Below are positions 13,748 through 18,716 of a DNA stretch of 64,000 nt, piece after piece (position 1 is the stretch's first letter; each line of letters begins with the position of its first letter). Position numbers and translations under genes: made by a program. Below the pieces are notes generated by a model. The model had not been told where the DNA came from, searched no databases, and saw nothing but the letters and a program-made list of their open reading frames with translations. Origin of the DNA: Thermoplasmatota archaeon (lineage in GTDB: Archaea; Thermoplasmatota; Thermoplasmata; UBA10834); the NCBI GenBank assembly GCA_018818785.1, contig JAHIRF010000002.1:67122-131121 (forward strand), given 5' to 3'.

Positions 13748-15430
13748 CTAATCGCCACCTCCTTTCCATATGCATCTTCCCTTTATGCATTCCGAGGATG
13801 CCTTGCCAGGTGGTGTCATTGGAAGGACGTCCTCCTCGGGATCAATCACGAAATCGAGCAATATCGGGACCTGGGATTTGATTCCCCTCTCGATGGCTTC
13901 TGCGACCTCTGACTGTTTCTCCACTCGTATCGCATCCGCCCCGTAGGCCTCCGCGAGCTTGACGAAATCGGGGTTCCTGCCGAACTCGGTCGCTATGTAT
14001 CTTGAGCCATAAAACAGCTTCTGCCACTGCTTTACGTTGCCGAGCCATCCGTTATTCAGGAGGCATACGATCACCGGTATGTCGTTCTCGACCGCCGTTG
14101 CGAACTCATGCGTGACCATCTGCAGGCTACCATCGCCTGCGATATCGGCGACGACACTATCGGGTCTGGCCAATTTCGCACCTATGGCCGCAGGGAACCC
14201 GAAACCCATGGTCCCTAGACCACCTGATGTGATGAACATGCGGTTGTCTTGACATTCGTAGAAGTGCAGCGCCCACATCTGGTTCTGGCCCACCTCGGTC
14301 GTGACAATCGCGTCGTCTGGCAATAGCTTCGACAGATCATGTATTACTTTCTGTGGTTTGATCGGATTTGATTTGATGTTGTAGTCGCAGGTGCATTCCT
14401 TCTTGAGTATCTTTATCCTCTCGATCCAGGTGGCCTTCTTCTTTCGTTTCTGCAGGCCTGCAATTAGGGCATTGACCACAGTCCATGCATCGCCCACAAG
14501 ACCGACCCTGCCCTTCACATTCTTGCCTATCTCGGACGAGTCGATATCGACATGGACTACCTTCGTCTTGGCTCCAAACTCGCTGAGCTTGCCAGTCACC
14601 CTGTCACTGAACCTGGTCCCGATTGCAAGGAGGACGTCGCAGTTGTTCAATGCATAGTTGGCCACTTGCTTCCCATGCATTCCACACACACCCAGGACAA
14701 GTGGATGGTTATCTGGGACGGACCCTTTTGCCATCAGTGTGGTGACAATGGGCGCCATCAACATCTCTGATAGCACGGCGATCTCAGGTCCCGCTCTTGA
14801 CCAAGTGACTCCTCCACCCACCATTATTGTTGGCCTCTCCGCCGATTCGAGCAGCTTGATTGCGTCGAGGAGGCCTGATAGGTTCCTGCGAGGCTTAGGC
14901 ACTCTGGCCTTAACATCGAGTTCCTCTTCGGTGTAATCCGCCTGGAATATGTCCGTTGGTATGTCTATGTGGACGGGTCCATATCTTCCTGTCGTGGCTA
15001 TCATGAACGCCCGGTTGATGGATTCAGGAAGGGCCTTCGGGTCAGTTATTCTGAAGTTGTGCTTCGTTATCGGCATCATGAGGCTGAAAGAGTCCGCTTC
15101 CTGGAACGCATCATTTCCCAGCACTCCCGTTGCCACTTGACCAGTTATCGCGATTATGGGTGATGAGTCCATGAATGCGGTGGCGACACCCGTCACCATA
15201 TTTGTCGCTCCTGGTCCCGAGGTTGCTACGCACACGCCAGGCCTCTTGGAGACCCTCGCATAACCATCAGCCATGTGTGCCGCGCACTGTTCATGGCGCA
15301 CAAGGATATGCCTGATATCCGAGTCCACGAGCTCGTCGTAGAACGGAAGTAGAACGCCGCCGGGTATGCCAAACATCAGATCGACATTCTGTTTCTCCAG
15401 CAATTTCACGGTGGCTCTGGCACCTTTCAT
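13748..15430 (-). CDS. ilvB: Acetolactate synthase large subunit
   Basis: FGIPGG, RHEQCAAHMADGYAR, GQNQMW, GDGS...NNG TPP motif; GAGGAG SD upstream of ATG 15430. Confidence 0.96.
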   Translation of the reverse strand: MKGARATVKLLEKQNVDLMFGIPGGVLLPFYDELVDSDIRHILVRHEQCAAHMADGYARVSKRPGVCVATSGPGATNMVTGVATAFMDSSPIIAITGQVATGVLGNDAFQEADSFSLMMPITKHNFRITDPKALPESINRAFMIATTGRYGPVHIDIPTDIFQADYTEEELDVKARVPKPRRNLSGLLDAIKLLESAERPTIMVGGGVTWSRAGPEIAVLSEMLMAPIVTTLMAKGSVPDNHPLVLGVCGMHGKQVANYALNNCDVLLAIGTRFSDRVTGKLSEFGAKTKVVHVDIDSSEIGKNVKGRVGLVGDAWTVVNALIAGLQKRKKKATWIERIKILKKECTCDYNIKSNPIKPQKVIHDLSKLLPDDAIVTTEVGQNQMWALHFYECQDNRMFITSGGLGTMGFGFPAAIGAKLARPDSVVADIAGDGSLQMVTHEFATAVENDIPVIVCLLNNGWLGNVKQWQKLFYGSRYIATEFGRNPDFVKLAEAYGADAIRVEKQSEVAEAIERGIKSQVPILLDFVIDPEEDVLPMTPPGKASSECIKGRCIWKGGGD

Positions 15431-15493
15431 CTCTAATTCACACTCCTCAAATCCTGCCCGCATGGACACAAGACCGCTCAGGTCGCATGCCCA

Positions 15494-15574
15494 TCACAGG
15501 CTTACAATCCGCAGGTCGACAATGACCTCTAGGGTCCCAAGAAGAAGCGTCAGATCGACTTGACCAGCGGACAT
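15494..15574 (-). CDS. Putative ilv leader (attenuator) peptide MSAGQVDLTLLLGTLEVIVDLRIVSL
   Basis: ATG-TGA 27-codon ORF read by hand; 13 of 26 residues are Leu/Val/Ile, including CTT-CTT-CTT; lies between a TATA box and ilvB. Confidence 0.72.
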   Translation of the reverse strand: MSAGQVDLTLLLGTLEVIVDLRIVSL

Positions 15575-15600
15575 TTGTACCGGGTTTGTAGATGATTGTC

Positions 15601-15614
15601 GATATATTAATATC
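15601..15614 (-). promoter_or_regulatory. TATA box of ilv leader/ilvBNC transcript
   Basis: Minus strand TTAATATA (15610-15603) about 30 nt upstream of the leader ATG. Confidence 0.6.
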
Positions 15615-15681
15615 TTGTCTGGACGGACTTGACCATTGAACGATATGCTCATTTGGACATAATTGTACATACTTCGATGGC

Positions 15682-16626
15682 CTAGCTGTGGTGACCCCTG
15701 CCGGTTATGACCGCAGCAAATGTGTGGTTGCGCGACTCTAGTCTTGTGATCGCGGTGATTGCCCCCGCCGATGCTGGGAGGATGTCTAGACCTTCCTGAT
15801 CCATGATGAGCTTGGACGCCTTCAGCAACTCCTCGTCCGATATCTCGAAAGCCGTTCCATTGGATTCGAGGATAGCGCTCATCCCCTCTTTGTCATCTAG
15901 TAGGAAATTGCCAGATAATGGTTCGTTCACCTCGGTTATTGTCAACCCCTCCACAGGGATGGGCACTCGCGACTTGTTGACGAGACCATGGATGGCAGAG
16001 TTGTTGTTGGAGTAGCCGACGATTCTCGGTTTCATGCTCATTGCCCTGAACCCCTGCCAAATTCCCGCCAGTATCGTCCCGTTCCCAAATGGCACCGATA
16101 TCCAGTCCGGCTGTCTCCCCAGCTCCTGTGCGATCTCCCTGGCTATGAATGAGTATGAGTATATCGCGAGCTCCTTGTCGGGCCCGCCCGGATTGGCGTT
16201 GTACCATCCGTTTGCCAGTGTGTCTTTCACGCAGGCGTTGAGAGCGGCCTCATAATCACCTTGAGTGATCACGATATTTCCACCGAACGCTTCTATGTCC
16301 TTGTTCCTGGTGGCCGCGAATTCCGATGGTACATAGACCCTGCAGTGCATGTCGAGTTTAGAGCACACATAAGCGAGCGCGGCGCCGTAATTGCCGCAAG
16401 TCACGGCAGCCAATGTGTTCTTTCCCTTCTTCCTCGCATCCAGTGCGTATAGAAGTGCGGCCCGGTCCTTGTGCGTCCCCGAAGAATTCTCCGATTCAAG
16501 CTTGAGATGGAGTCGCCTGATACCGAGCTTCTTCTCGAGTCTAGAAGCTCTTTTGAATGAAGTGTGCCCGATTCGAAGATTGTGCATCTGCCGCTCGAAC
16601 TCTCGCACCAGCTCCAAAGGTATCAA
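15682..16626 (-). CDS. Threonine synthase-like PLP-dependent enzyme (fold type II)
   Basis: ENSSGTHKDR PLP lysine, TCGNYG, VPFGNGT, ITGRG. Confidence 0.88.
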   Translation of the reverse strand: MIPLELVREFERQMHNLRIGHTSFKRASRLEKKLGIRRLHLKLESENSSGTHKDRAALLYALDARKKGKNTLAAVTCGNYGAALAYVCSKLDMHCRVYVPSEFAATRNKDIEAFGGNIVITQGDYEAALNACVKDTLANGWYNANPGGPDKELAIYSYSFIAREIAQELGRQPDWISVPFGNGTILAGIWQGFRAMSMKPRIVGYSNNNSAIHGLVNKSRVPIPVEGLTITEVNEPLSGNFLLDDKEGMSAILESNGTAFEISDEELLKASKLIMDQEGLDILPASAGAITAITRLESRNHTFAAVITGRGHHS

Positions 16627-16725: not shown

Positions 16726-18192
16726 TCAGTTGAGTCCGTTATCGCGGATATCTTTCTCCGCAGCGACAACTATGTCTTCGAACTGCTTCGAGACTTCAGT
16801 TGCGACAGGCTGCACAACATGCTCCTTCATGATCTTTGCAACCTTCTCCCTAGCGCGGTCGACGGCACTCTTCTTGCCGTCTGCTTCCCAGAGCTCGCCT
16901 GTCCTCCTGTCAGTTATATCTGTCATGAAGTGCTCCTTGTGAAGCCAGTTCATGGTGTGTCTTTCTGGAAGGAAGCTTCCGCCAGGGCCGACCTTCTTAA
17001 TCAGGTCGATCGCCATGTGGTCGTCGTCAACGATCACGCCCTGGGCGAGTCTCGCCATTATCTTGACCATCTCGTTGTCGATAACCATCTGCTCGTAGCA
17101 CAGCATCGAGACATCGTCGAGCAGACCCAATCCTGCGACCATGTCGCAGCCAGCGTAGAACTGGGGCATTCCGCTGGACATCTTCTCGTAGCAGGACTGC
17201 GGGCCTGGTACCTTTGCAGAGGTGACTATTCCGCCACAGAGTATCGGGAATCCGTACCAGTGTGCAAGTTCTCCCGCTCCGCTGGATATAAGGGCCCTCT
17301 CCGGTCCGCCGCCTGCCCATGTCATGGTCTTCATATCAAAGGCCGCTCCGCCCGTCCCATAGATGAATGGTGAGCCAGGAGCTGCGAGTTGAGCCGTAGT
17401 CAGTCCCGCGAGTACTTCAGCGTTATTGACAATGATTGATCCGGCGAGCGTCACAGGTCCAGTGATACCTGCCTGTGGCATTCCGTAGAACGATATCGGC
17501 ACGCCTGCCCTCGCCAGCGCGAGTGCACCTTCAGTCGAACCTCCGTCAAGCTGTAGAGGAGAGAACGGGCAGTGCATGGACGAGAAGATTGGTCTTCTCC
17601 TCAATTCCTTCTCGCCGCCTGCGAGTGCGGAACCGAGTTTGATGAGCCACTGTGCCTCTCTCCTGTGACTGGTCGTCTCTACCTGTACGTGCTTCTCGAT
17701 GCTCATGAGGGCGACCTTGAGGTCGACGACATGTCTGTAATAATCAGGTATGTCTTGGCTGCTCACGCAAGGCCAGAAGATGTGAGCGGAATCCAGAGCG
17801 TTAGCGACCTTGCCAACCATCTCAAGATCCTTGCTCGTGGACATGCGTCTCTTTCCGGTCTCGAAATCCATAACGCCCGTGCCGTTTCCATCCGTGCAGC
17901 AGTAGACTCTTCGTCCATCGAGTACCACATCGTATTTTGGGTTACGGGCAAAGAGCGTGATGTTCTTCTTGGCCTTGGTAATGGCTTCTTCTACGAGATT
18001 ACCAGGGATCTTTGCACTGCTCTGCTTGTAATCCACAGTAGCCCCTGCAGCTTCAAGGAGCTTCAGACATTCTTCGCTGAAGACTTTTATGCCTGCGTTC
18101 TCGAGCACGTCCAACGTTCCCCAGTGAAGTGATTCCAGGTCCGTCTCCTGGAACATTCGGAACGCGATCTTTCCTTTCGGGAAACCAATCAT
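16726..18192 (-). CDS. Trimethylamine methyltransferase (MttB) superfamily, non-pyrrolysine
   Basis: SPLQLD, GITGPVTLAG, NAEVLAG, SAKVPGPQSCYEK, YEQMVIDNE, VGPGGSFL; no in-frame amber. Confidence 0.92.
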   Translation of the reverse strand: MIGFPKGKIAFRMFQETDLESLHWGTLDVLENAGIKVFSEECLKLLEAAGATVDYKQSSAKIPGNLVEEAITKAKKNITLFARNPKYDVVLDGRRVYCCTDGNGTGVMDFETGKRRMSTSKDLEMVGKVANALDSAHIFWPCVSSQDIPDYYRHVVDLKVALMSIEKHVQVETTSHRREAQWLIKLGSALAGGEKELRRRPIFSSMHCPFSPLQLDGGSTEGALALARAGVPISFYGMPQAGITGPVTLAGSIIVNNAEVLAGLTTAQLAAPGSPFIYGTGGAAFDMKTMTWAGGGPERALISSGAGELAHWYGFPILCGGIVTSAKVPGPQSCYEKMSSGMPQFYAGCDMVAGLGLLDDVSMLCYEQMVIDNEMVKIMARLAQGVIVDDDHMAIDLIKKVGPGGSFLPERHTMNWLHKEHFMTDITDRRTGELWEADGKKSAVDRAREKVAKIMKEHVVQPVATEVSKQFEDIVVAAEKDIRDNGLN

Positions 18193-18445
18193 TTCAACAT
18201 TCCCCTGTTTTGCTTCCACGGCCAGAGTATCACTCCGACTGTGCGCTTCGAGTACACCGTATTGCAAATGAGTATTTATTTGCTGATGTTGAGGTGCAAC
18301 GATAGACAGGTATGTTCATTGGGGCTGCTGGCTAGTGAGGATTCGGCTCTGCTCTCATCATCTGCTTCAGAGGCGATGCACGCACAGATCGATACGAAAG
18401 GCTTTAATGAGGGAACATATATCGACCGAAGGCCAGCACCATCAA

Positions 18446-18530
18446 GCGGGGGTAGCCAAGCCCGGTCAACGGCGCCAGATTGAGGGTCTGGTCTCGAAGG
18501 AGTCCCTGAGTTCGAATCTCAGCCCCCGCA
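18446..18530 (+). tRNA. tRNA-Leu(GAG)
   Basis: Acceptor GCGGGGG/CCCCCGC, anticodon arm CCAGA-TTGAGGG-TCTGG, long variable arm, TTCGAAT. Confidence 0.95.
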
Positions 18531-18716
18531 CTTTGATTTTTCTCGCACCAAGACGGGATTACAGAGCGCAAAGCAACATAAAGTCATTATGGACAGAATG
18601 GGTTCATTGATGATTCGATATGTTCGCCGATCTCGGTCATGATTCGCTGAATCGCCGATATGGAAATATATCTGACTTGAGAATTCAGGCTCCGATAACG
18701 GGACAGATGGCGGAAA

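Follow-up and report, generated by a model that had tools for sequence, protein, structure and literature searches.

Upstream of ilvBNC in the window (the whole 64,000-nt stretch of DNA that was analysed) lies a short upstream ORF (uORF) that is rich in Leu, Val, and Ile codons. We consider it likely that this uORF is a cis-acting leader peptide gene for ilvBNC, on which the ribosome would sense charged tRNA-Leu, tRNA-Val, and tRNA-Ile by means of the cognate codons. We favour a sensor because the reading frame is conserved, the composition matches the pathway, rare codons are used, leuA has a counterpart, and leaders of this kind occur in independent lineages.

A sequence-only reading of the window had described a 26-codon minus-strand ORF with 13 L/V/I residues out of 26, including CTT CTT CTT, that starts about 30 nt after a TTAATATA box and stops 63 nt before ilvB. 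Translation confirmed the ORF (7 L, 4 V, and 2 I among 26 residues), its coordinates were correct, and Pfam domains agreed with the assignment of the downstream genes to ilvBNC. The features of the locus are as follows.

15682, end of a PLP-dependent enzyme gene upstream of the leader
15617-15611, minus strand: BRE-like purine-rich CAAGATA, adjoining the TATA box
15610-15603, minus strand: TATA box TTAATATA, from sequence
15574..15494, minus strand: leader ORF (uORF) MSAGQVDLTLLLGTLEVIVDLRIVSL, 26 codons plus stop, by translation
15571-15564, minus strand: TCCGCTGG (uORF codons 2 to 4), possible 5′ arm of helix P1, from minimum free energy (MFE) and consensus folds
15553-15506, minus strand: L/V/I-rich putative sensor region of the uORF, codons 8 to 23, from alignment
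15547-15539, minus strand: CTT CTT CTT of the uORF
15532-15530, minus strand: rare, near-invariant CTA codon of the uORF
15517-15506, minus strand: GAC CTG CGG ATT, encoding D-L-R-I of the uORF
15515-15508, minus strand: CCTGCGGA, possible P1 partner of TCCGCTGG, from MFE and consensus folds
15501-15456, minus strand: hairpin P2, −26 kcal/mol, from folding and covariation
15496-15494, minus strand: uORF stop codon TGA
15493-15431, minus strand: 63-nt spacer from the uORF stop to the ilvB ATG
15448-15441, minus strand: strong ilvB Shine-Dalgarno (SD) sequence GAGGAGTG, conserved as GGAG/GAGG in the alignment
13748..15430, minus strand: ilvB (acetolactate synthase large subunit), ATG at 15430, Pfam TPP enzyme N/M/C
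After ilvB, minus strand: ilvN (Pfam ACT_AHAS_ss) and ilvC (Pfam KARI_N/C)
Downstream of ilvBNC: FAA-hydrolase-family gene, then class IV aminotransferase (ilvE-like) gene, from Pfam
18446-18531, plus strand: tRNA-Leu(gag), about 2.9 kb from the uORF

The closest ilvB sequences among named records were those of Thermoplasmata/Thermoplasmatota metagenome-assembled genomes (MAGs), with 82 to 87% identity, followed by Methanomassiliicoccales with 57 to 59%. The ilvB N terminus could be aligned from residue 1 in all relatives. Formally, the uORF frame is open upstream to an ATG at 15670 (58 aa); this upstream part runs over the TATA box and lacks conservation. The tRNA-Leu(GAG) gene that had been noted about 2.9 kb away was found at that location, and its proximity to the uORF is best treated as a coincidence.

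The spacing between an archaeal TATA box and the start of transcription allows transcription starts to be predicted. A TTAATA or TTTATA hexamer precedes the uORF ATG by 23 to 26 nt in 22 of 27 loci, by 30 nt in the 4 loci of the window's cluster, and by 21 nt in one locus. Because the hexamer lies 23 to 26 nt before the ATG, the uORF in most relatives should begin at the predicted transcription start, i.e., should be leaderless. In the window's cluster the uORF start is shifted two codons downstream, to 30 nt from the hexamer (TTAATA in the window), and a 5′ UTR of ~6 nt is predicted for the window. The earlier description of the uORF as nearly leaderless fits the start predicted for the window, and the TATA spacing fits a leaderless start in most relatives. 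A CATTGCC(A/G) motif between the TATA box and the uORF start is conserved in most relatives.

We determined the distribution of the uORF among related genomes. ilvB was present in 30 of 41 such genomes, with 29 loci that include the ilvB N terminus. The uORF was found in all 27 ilvB loci of the window's order (families f1 and f2) and was absent from 2 loci of other families (L027 and L028). The order's loci together with three further MAG records, two duplicates having been dropped, provided 30 distinct leaders. Conserved L/V/I-rich short ORFs before ilvB were what the sequence-only reading had proposed to look for in relatives, and the frame proved open in 30/30 leaders: all have an ATG-started uORF of 26 to 30 codons with its stop 53 to 65 nt before ilvB. 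The consensus is M-x-E-S-A-G-(5 variable)-L-V-x-I-L-V-V-L-G-V-L-V-D-L-R-I-L-R-P followed by the stop codon. Insertions and deletions within the uORF were multiples of three in the leader alignment. The third codon position was the most variable (entropy of 32.6, versus 25.5 and 23.8 for the other two positions), and pN/pS was 0.80 in frame, versus 1.22 and 1.05 in the shifted frames. The alignment thus suggests a frame that is kept and residues that are weakly constrained, the pattern expected of a leader peptide.

A covariance model of the leader, R1, was searched against a 151-genome sample of the class, and the window's own genome was scanned as well. R1 matched one copy per genome, at ilvB, in 18/18 genomes of the two families (the own genome, where the copy is single, 15/15 genomes of f1, and 2/2 of f2). 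Among genomes from 27 further families of the class, 133 in all, no match was credible; two weak matches in family f11 (E values of 0.002 and 0.01) were rejected as spurious, being inside coding regions of GC-rich genomes. Rfam 15 gave no relevant match at an E value of ≤1 for the window region and seven related leaders. For a chance control we used the own genome, a MAG (GC content, 53%; L+V+I, 23.6% of the residues of long ORFs). Against its random intergenic ORFs, a comparison also proposed in the sequence-only reading, the uORF stood out: 5 of 1,270 ATG-started intergenic ORFs of 20 to 35 codons had an L+V+I content of ≥50%, the uORF included, and none of the other four adjoins branched-chain genes. 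An unsupervised scan of the own genome for uORFs with an excess of any one amino acid returned nothing above the multiple-testing expectation. A second small ORF shares bases with the uORF stop (UGAUG; in the window it reads MGMRPERSCVHAGRI) and was set aside as not conserved: judged by eye, only ~13 of 30 leaders have an AUG on the stop or directly beside it. On this comparative evidence, we consider the uORF to be real, selected, and beyond chance.

The 28 distinct ilvB-leader peptides consist of 23% L, 15% V, and 7% I, with only 3 of 753 residues being F, M, W, or Y. Hence, the hydrophobic positions of the ilvB uORF are restricted almost wholly to the end products of the pathway. Codon usage in the leaders also differed from that in the adjacent ilvB genes, as follows.

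CTT:.24 in leaders,.09 in adjacent ilvB genes
CTA:.18 in leaders,.04 in adjacent ilvB genes
TTG:.16 in leaders,.05 in adjacent ilvB genes
ATT:.61 in leaders,.07 in adjacent ilvB genes
GTT:.20 in leaders,.07 in adjacent ilvB genes
T-ending L/V/I codons: 28% in leaders, 8% in adjacent ilvB genes

CTA occupies one fixed Leu position in 27 of 29 distinct leaders, and it accounts for 7% of Leu codons across the own genome. The bias toward rare codons could come in part from a non-optimised, AT-richer leader sequence. D-L-R is near-invariant in the peptides. Since several codons are invariant at the nucleotide level across leaders (CTA-G and CTG-CGG), part of the conservation appears to act on the RNA or DNA and not on the peptide.

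A conserved hairpin around the uORF stop codon, P2, is a point that the sequence-only reading had missed. P2 is present in 30/30 leaders, at −21 to −32 kcal/mol. Its first bases lie in the second-last sense codon and its 5′ strand contains the TGA stop; it has one bulged base and ends 25 nt before the ilvB ATG in the window (20 to 29 nt across leaders). Seven of its 13 pairs are changed on both sides, 90% of alignment cells are paired, and 0 of 500 shuffles match its covariation score. Many of the changes are C-G to U-G or A-U to G-U, and we assign P2 to the sense RNA because of these frequent G-U pairs. The second-last uORF codon always has C in its third position although it encodes R, G, S, or H, and the last codon alternates between CCG and CTG (17 P and 13 L among the 30 leaders) with the pair kept. 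The last two codons of the uORF therefore seem to follow helix P2 rather than the peptide.

Other candidate structures had fewer signs of selection. P1 (TCCGCTGG with CCTGCGGA; codons 2 to 4 with the D-L-R codons) has 87 to 95% of cells paired and 0 of 7 pairs covarying; it is conserved and may possibly form. A local GGTC/GACC hairpin is also conserved, has one covarying pair, and is likewise a possible element. Consensus folds with a ribosome footprint blocked at three positions contained no alternative conserved helix, P2 being the only helix that covaries. K-turn (box C-like UGAUGG) and T-box-like readings of P2 were discarded by inspection, the context of the stop being variable (UGAUGG, UAACGG, UGACGG, UAGACG, and others).

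The sequence-only reading had proposed ribosome-mediated attenuation. We found no hairpin-plus-U terminator site in positions 15380 to 15700 and no conserved T run after P2, and a classical terminator/antiterminator arrangement was rejected, neither element having been found. The ilvB SD had no consistent pairing partner, its probability of being paired ranging from 0.01 to 0.97 across leaders. Duplexes between the ilvB SD and the uORF were no stronger than those of codon-shuffled controls (mean z, +0.21; 2 of 30 leaders at P ≤ 0.05), and against synonymously recoded controls the mean z was +0.27 for ilvB and +0.66 for leuA. In consensus folds that include 75 nt of ilvB, both the SD and the AUG of ilvB were unpaired, with P2 either free or blocked. 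Blocking the 5′ arm of P2 raised SD pairing by >0.1 in 17 of 30 leaders; the partners differed from sequence to sequence and there was no control, so we do not count this result as support. Sequestration of the SD by the uORF or by the strands of P2 was thus rejected on the basis of pairing probabilities, shuffled and recoded controls, and consensus folds. The proposal of attenuation therefore fared differently in its two parts. An L/V/I-sensing uORF is strongly supported by comparison, through the conserved frame, composition, and near-leaderless position, the Leu-only counterpart at leuA, and related leaders of the Methanomassiliicoccales type. In contrast, classical attenuation is not supported for ilvBNC, which has neither a hairpin-plus-U terminator nor a terminator/antiterminator alternative and has a free ilvB SD.

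Analogous leaders at other operons of the own genome, which the sequence-only reading had also suggested looking for, were found in one case. The leuA gene of this genome (contig C4) is preceded by an SD-led 19-codon uORF, MAQESKIQLILPLGLLILA followed by a stop (locus L117, 1406-1465), which is Leu-rich; in contrast, the regions upstream of trpE, hisG, and the thr operon contain no cognate uORF. Since the trp, his, and thr operons of the own genome are without such a uORF, the leader type appears specific to the branched-chain pathway. A homologous leuA uORF was found in 21 of 22 leuA loci examined, a count that excludes the distant leuA paralog loci L139 to L141; the remaining locus, L125, is ended by its contig and shows only the 3′ half. 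In the sister family, the leuA uORFs end in ILSLLLLLLG or LDLLLLLLG. The leuA leaders consist of 40% L and 8% I, with V at 2 of 314 residues (0.6%). The difference in Val content between the ilvB and leuA leaders is significant (Fisher's exact test; P = 3e-16, or 1.4e-8 for 13 versus 11 divergent representatives), with both values inflated by relatedness. Composition that tracks the pathway in this way is the hallmark of a leader-peptide sensor, and a generic hydrophobic peptide or a protein-binding RNA fails to explain it.

The leuA leaders of the window's order have their own structure. A run of T4 to T6 lies directly before the leuA SD, and the SD of the uORF pairs with the last codons and stop of the uORF in a helix of 8 pairs (92.5% of cells paired, 2 pairs compensatory). 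The score of the structure as counted, which has 13 pairs with a small invariant hairpin among them, is matched by 5 of 500 shuffles.

Leaders with similar properties occur in other lineages. Six ilvB loci of the Methanomassiliicoccales type (L035 to L038 and L040, from named MAGs, and L180, from family f26) have the same architecture with unrelated sequence: a TATA box, 23 to 24 nt to the start (5 of 6 loci), a leaderless uORF of 22 to 26 codons ending in VVVVLIR, VVGIIIR, or KVIVVL, and a hairpin of −15 to −22 kcal/mol located 1 to 5 nt past the stop, with 48 to 67 nt to ilvB. At leuA of family f6, an SD-led uORF of 12 to 18 codons was found in 17 of 23 loci, with 5 loci lacking it and one lacking upstream sequence. 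These uORFs start with M-I-F/C/Y and end in a run of L or I, e.g., MIFSTTTGLLLLE and MIFAQHAGLLLIG, each followed by a stop. They are enclosed by a 6-bp helix whose arms adjoin the uORF SD and the leuA SD; in this helix 96% of cells are paired and 3 of the 6 pairs covary, with 1 of 500 shuffles scoring as high. In families f6, f8, and f25, ilvB is not preceded by a uORF of the Methanomassiliicoccales type. Candidate L/V/I-rich uORFs were also seen before ilvB at L065, L099, and L106, which belong to two unclassified archaea and one Archaeoglobaceae MAG. P values throughout overstate the case, as related sequences are not independent. We lean toward the view that Thermoplasmata (the window's order and the Methanomassiliicoccales type) have a small regulon in which ilvBNC is preceded by an L/V/I leader and leuA by a Leu leader. 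If so, it would be the first instance in archaea of amino acid supply being sensed by the ribosome on cognate codons of a uORF. The output would be archaeal in design: the sensor uORF, leaderless or SD led, would be enclosed by or end in a stable helix, no bacterial-type terminator would be used, and ribosome position would determine leader conformation and, downstream, translation or mRNA fate.

These features suggest the following mechanism for ilvBNC. Transcription would start ~24 to 30 nt after the TATA box, which places the 5′ end of the mRNA at the uORF AUG or slightly ahead of it. The uORF, of 26 to 28 codons, would then be translated by a ribosome; its middle and late codons are nearly all for Leu, Val, or Ile and mostly rare or wobble read (CUU, CUA, AUU, and GUU). 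With charged tRNA-Leu, tRNA-Val, or tRNA-Ile scarce, the ribosome would stall 15 to 50 nt upstream of P2 (in the window, 28 nt separate the CTA codon from the base of P2), leaving P2 folded and holding open any structure that might enclose the uORF (P1). With charged tRNAs available, it would reach the stop inside the 5′ strand of P2, melt P2, and depart, and the leader would refold. The position of the ribosome would thereby set the conformation of the leader and, through it, the expression of ilvBNC, presumably upward on starvation. As the output, our first guess is translational control exerted by a helix around the uORF, which the stalled ribosome wedges open; this wedge model is suggested by the uORF-enclosing helices of the leuA leaders, which adjoin the downstream ribosome binding site. 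Alternatively, the output could be a change in mRNA stability or fate, or factor-dependent termination. For ilvB, the helix that would correspond to that of leuA, P1, is putative, with P2 lying between it and the SD. We infer the translation of the uORF, the stalling, the direction in which expression responds, and the step that produces the output.

A 151-nt contig from a metatranscriptome (sediment run) spans positions 15570 to 15420, joining the uORF to the start of ilvB, with three differences that are identical to the variant of a sister genome. Among RNA runs, this was the only metatranscriptome with a share of the stretch, a small one assembled as short contigs. The contig suggests, weakly, that the leader and the start of ilvB can be on one RNA-library molecule; it gives no ends, strand, or level, and DNA carry-over is possible.

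We weighed this sensor against three other explanations of the leader. The leader could be a structured RNA, comprising P2 and the CUAG and CUGCGG motifs, that is read by a protein (e.g., an Lrp/ACT-type protein or IlvN) or by a ligand, with the frame secondary or serving for ribosome loading only. The clear covariation of P2, the positions that stay nucleotide-invariant despite available synonymous codons, and the last two codons, shaped by pairing rather than by residue, would all be expected of such an RNA, and CATTGCC(A/G) between the TATA box and the start could be a transcription factor operator. However, a structured RNA leaves unexplained why start codon, frame, and length are kept in 30/30 leaders with indels in threes, why the hydrophobic positions are restricted to L/V/I, and why Leu-rich, Val-free leuA leaders of differing sequence occur in three lineages; nor does the leader match an Rfam family. 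We regard this explanation as improbable. Still less probable, in our estimate, is a functional small hydrophobic peptide, either a membrane microprotein or a modulator of acetolactate synthase, that is coexpressed with ilvBNC and senses nothing. The ORF is indeed conserved, with a hydrophobic core of ~12 to 14 residues followed by D-L-R, and the other L/V/I-rich small ORFs of the own genome resemble membrane peptides. However, this stretch is short for a membrane span, and typical membrane segments are not so nearly devoid of F, M, W, and Y (3/753). The weak constraint on the peptide (pN/pS, 0.80), C-terminal residues that vary in step with RNA pairing, the change of composition with pathway in the leuA counterpart, and the single copy that is always at ilvB all argue against it as well.

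The third explanation retains a sensor and changes what is sensed. The uORF product could be an arrest peptide similar to TnaC or the fungal arginine attenuator peptide, responding inside the exit tunnel to free amino acid, with a stall at or near the stop holding P2 open. Conservation of the C-terminal half (L-G/E-V-L-V-D-L-R-I) at a fixed distance from the stop fits this idea, as does Pro as the last residue in 17 of 30 leaders; moreover, with the stop inside the hairpin, a stalled terminating ribosome would keep P2 melted. In contrast, the alternation of P and L at the last position (CCG/CUG) preserves an RNA pair and the residue before it may be R, G, S, or H. The Methanomassiliicoccales-type and leuA leaders share the composition and not the motif, and enrichment of rare cognate codons is a prediction of hungry-codon sensing that an arrest peptide does not need. 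We consider an arrest peptide a distant prospect.

If sensing of charged tRNAs at cognate codons of the uORF is confirmed, a classic bacterial regulatory principle would operate in archaea too, on their own machinery for transcription and translation and with no bacterial terminator involved. That would raise a testable question, namely by what route a ribosome stalled on an archaeal leader affects the gene downstream. Such tests can draw on two operons, on no fewer than three divergent lineages, and on hairpin variants with natural compensatory changes, and some of the related lineages appear to contain cultivable methanogens. Small ORFs of this kind escape annotation, and they are relevant to the engineering of branched-chain amino acids in archaea.

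In archaea, transcription factors are usually credited with controlling amino acid biosynthesis. The sequence-only reading had stated that, as far as known, amino-acid-sensing leaders are not established in archaea, and a full-text search of the openly accessible literature returned no report of cognate-codon leader peptides in this domain. In the portions of text covered by that search, two archaeal Ribo-seq papers mention uORFs generically only (PMC7261190 and PMC11456600), one paper cites attenuation from bacteria only (PMC13158618), and one has leader peptides only in its reference list (PMC6991167).

The leader resembles several known systems in part. The enterobacterial ilvBN, ilvGMEDA, and leu operons have leader-peptide attenuators, in which a short ORF of 20 to 30 codons is rich in rare codons for the end product (L/V/I for ilv and Leu for leu). 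Like these, the archaeal leader is a short, end-product-rich, rare-codon ORF directly before a biosynthetic operon. Unlike them, it follows a TATA box with little or no 5′ UTR expected, and it has no hairpin-plus-U terminator and no alternative 1:2, 2:3, and 3:4 helices; the stop codon lies within one very stable hairpin instead. TnaC and the fungal arginine attenuator peptide are nascent-peptide sensors that stall the ribosome at a stop codon. The archaeal uORF is like them in that its C-terminal half is conserved and sits at a constant distance from the stop, and unlike them in that its C-terminal residues follow RNA pairing and its motif is absent from the sister leaders.

The general scheme of leader-peptide attenuation is described in a bioRxiv preprint (10.1101/834739), to judge from its accessible text. 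The portions available of two papers on the Corynebacterium ilvBNC leader, or ilvB-II motif, describe a regulatory conserved uORF with transcription attenuation and three hairpins (PMC10272879 and PMC11857589). As far as those portions go, both leaders have a conserved uORF in the 5′ leader of ilvBNC within a conserved RNA structure; the archaeal leader differs in having no detected sequence or Rfam relationship to the bacterial one. The accessible text of the same preprint (10.1101/834739) describes mycobacterial leaderless poly-Cys small ORFs as Cys-responsive translational attenuators whose cognate-codon tract pairs with the downstream SD. Unlike these small ORFs as described there, neither the ilvB nor the leuA leaders gave evidence of SD pairing when it was tested. 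As in that account, we propose a leaderless first-ORF sensor of a biosynthetic operon that works without an intrinsic terminator, with sensing at cognate codons. Judged by these comparisons, the ilvBNC leader is probably an archaeal version of the bacterial leader-peptide principle.

Features in and around the ilvB leader, window coordinates:
15575-15602, minus strand: CATTGCC(A/G) motif between the TATA box and the start of the leucine/valine/isoleucine-rich uORF, at the same position in loci L005-L022 of related genomes
15529-15532, minus strand: CUAG tetranucleotide, also found in leuA leaders
15446-15495, minus strand: 15-codon ORF MGMRPERSCVHAGRI, whose AUG overlaps the uORF stop codon (UGAUG)
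16726-18267, minus strand: MttB-family (trimethylamine methyltransferase-like) gene, two genes upstream of the leader
18446-18531, plus strand: tRNA-Leu(GAG) gene, lying beyond the MttB-family gene as seen from the leader and already pointed out in the sequence-only reading

The CATTGCC(A/G) motif is conserved in most relatives and is degenerate in the window (CATCTACAAACCC). It may be a transcription factor operator at the uORF/ilvB promoter. The CUAG tetranucleotide, which is near-invariant across ilvB leaders, consists of the rare leucine codon CUA followed by G and places UAG in the +1 frame. In the species cluster of the window, the 15-codon ORF runs across P2, the covarying hairpin that carries the uORF stop codon, and terminates within the Shine-Dalgarno sequence of ilvB. 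An AUG overlapping the uORF stop codon was found in only about 13 of the 30 distinct ilvB leaders from the order to which the window belongs.

Short ORFs also precede leuA, both in this order and in f6, another family of the same class:
Contig C4 of the same genome, 84442-84501 (outside the window; L117:1406-1465), plus strand: conserved leuA uORF, led by a Shine-Dalgarno sequence
L137, L208-L220, L225, L226, and L229: f6 leuA uORFs, approximately 60 to 100 nt 5′ of leuA

The uORF on contig C4 encodes MAQESKIQLILPLGLLILA, which is rich in leucine and free of valine, and lies 36 nt 5′ of leuA. CUAG recurs in the leuA leaders of the order, as CUA-GCC near the leader end, and a run of four to six T residues 3′ of the uORF abuts the leuA Shine-Dalgarno sequence. 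A helix pairs the Shine-Dalgarno region of the uORF with its last codons and stop codon (compensatory pairs, 2 of 8). The f6 uORFs have 12 to 18 codons, with M-I-F/C/Y at the start and a leucine/isoleucine run at the end; around them is a covarying 6-bp helix (ACCGUC/GACGGU) whose arms adjoin both Shine-Dalgarno sequences.

A further motif precedes a leuCD-like operon:
Contig C12 of the same genome, upstream of 8990, minus strand (also L142-L156): CACA-ATG-AT(A/G)-A(A/T)T, 5′ of a citramalate/homocitrate-synthase-like gene, the first of the operon

This motif (M-I-I, M-I-N, or M-M-I) is conserved approximately 60 to 100 nt 5′ of the gene, whereas the length of the ORF that it opens is not. The motif could be an isoleucine-codon mini-leader or a mere promoter element.

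ilvB is preceded by small ORFs in other lineages as well:
L035-L038, L040, and L180 (family f26): Methanomassiliicoccales-type leaders, 5′ of ilvB

These uORFs are leaderless, have 22 to 26 codons, and end in valine/isoleucine/leucine runs. They are followed by a hairpin, GAGGCAUCC...GGRUGUCCUC, and then by a conserved AUUG. Within the window's order, several ilvB leaders likewise have AUUG 3′ of P2. Leucine/valine/isoleucine-rich uORFs lie 24 to 40 nt 5′ of ilvB in three archaeal MAGs (L065, L099, and L106), two of them unclassified and one from the Archaeoglobaceae. They end in ..VLLPVVVLVE, ..LLLLPVPVVIC, and ..ILNVVRLVLLF, each followed by a stop codon; these are candidates that may represent further independent leader peptides. 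At six bacterial MAG loci (L071, L075, L097, L100, L103, and L105), a conserved small ORF lies immediately 5′ of ilvB. Its motif, ..GYLARYAK.V.SA..GAV.., is found in several bacterial phyla, and this ORF is unrelated to the archaeal leaders.
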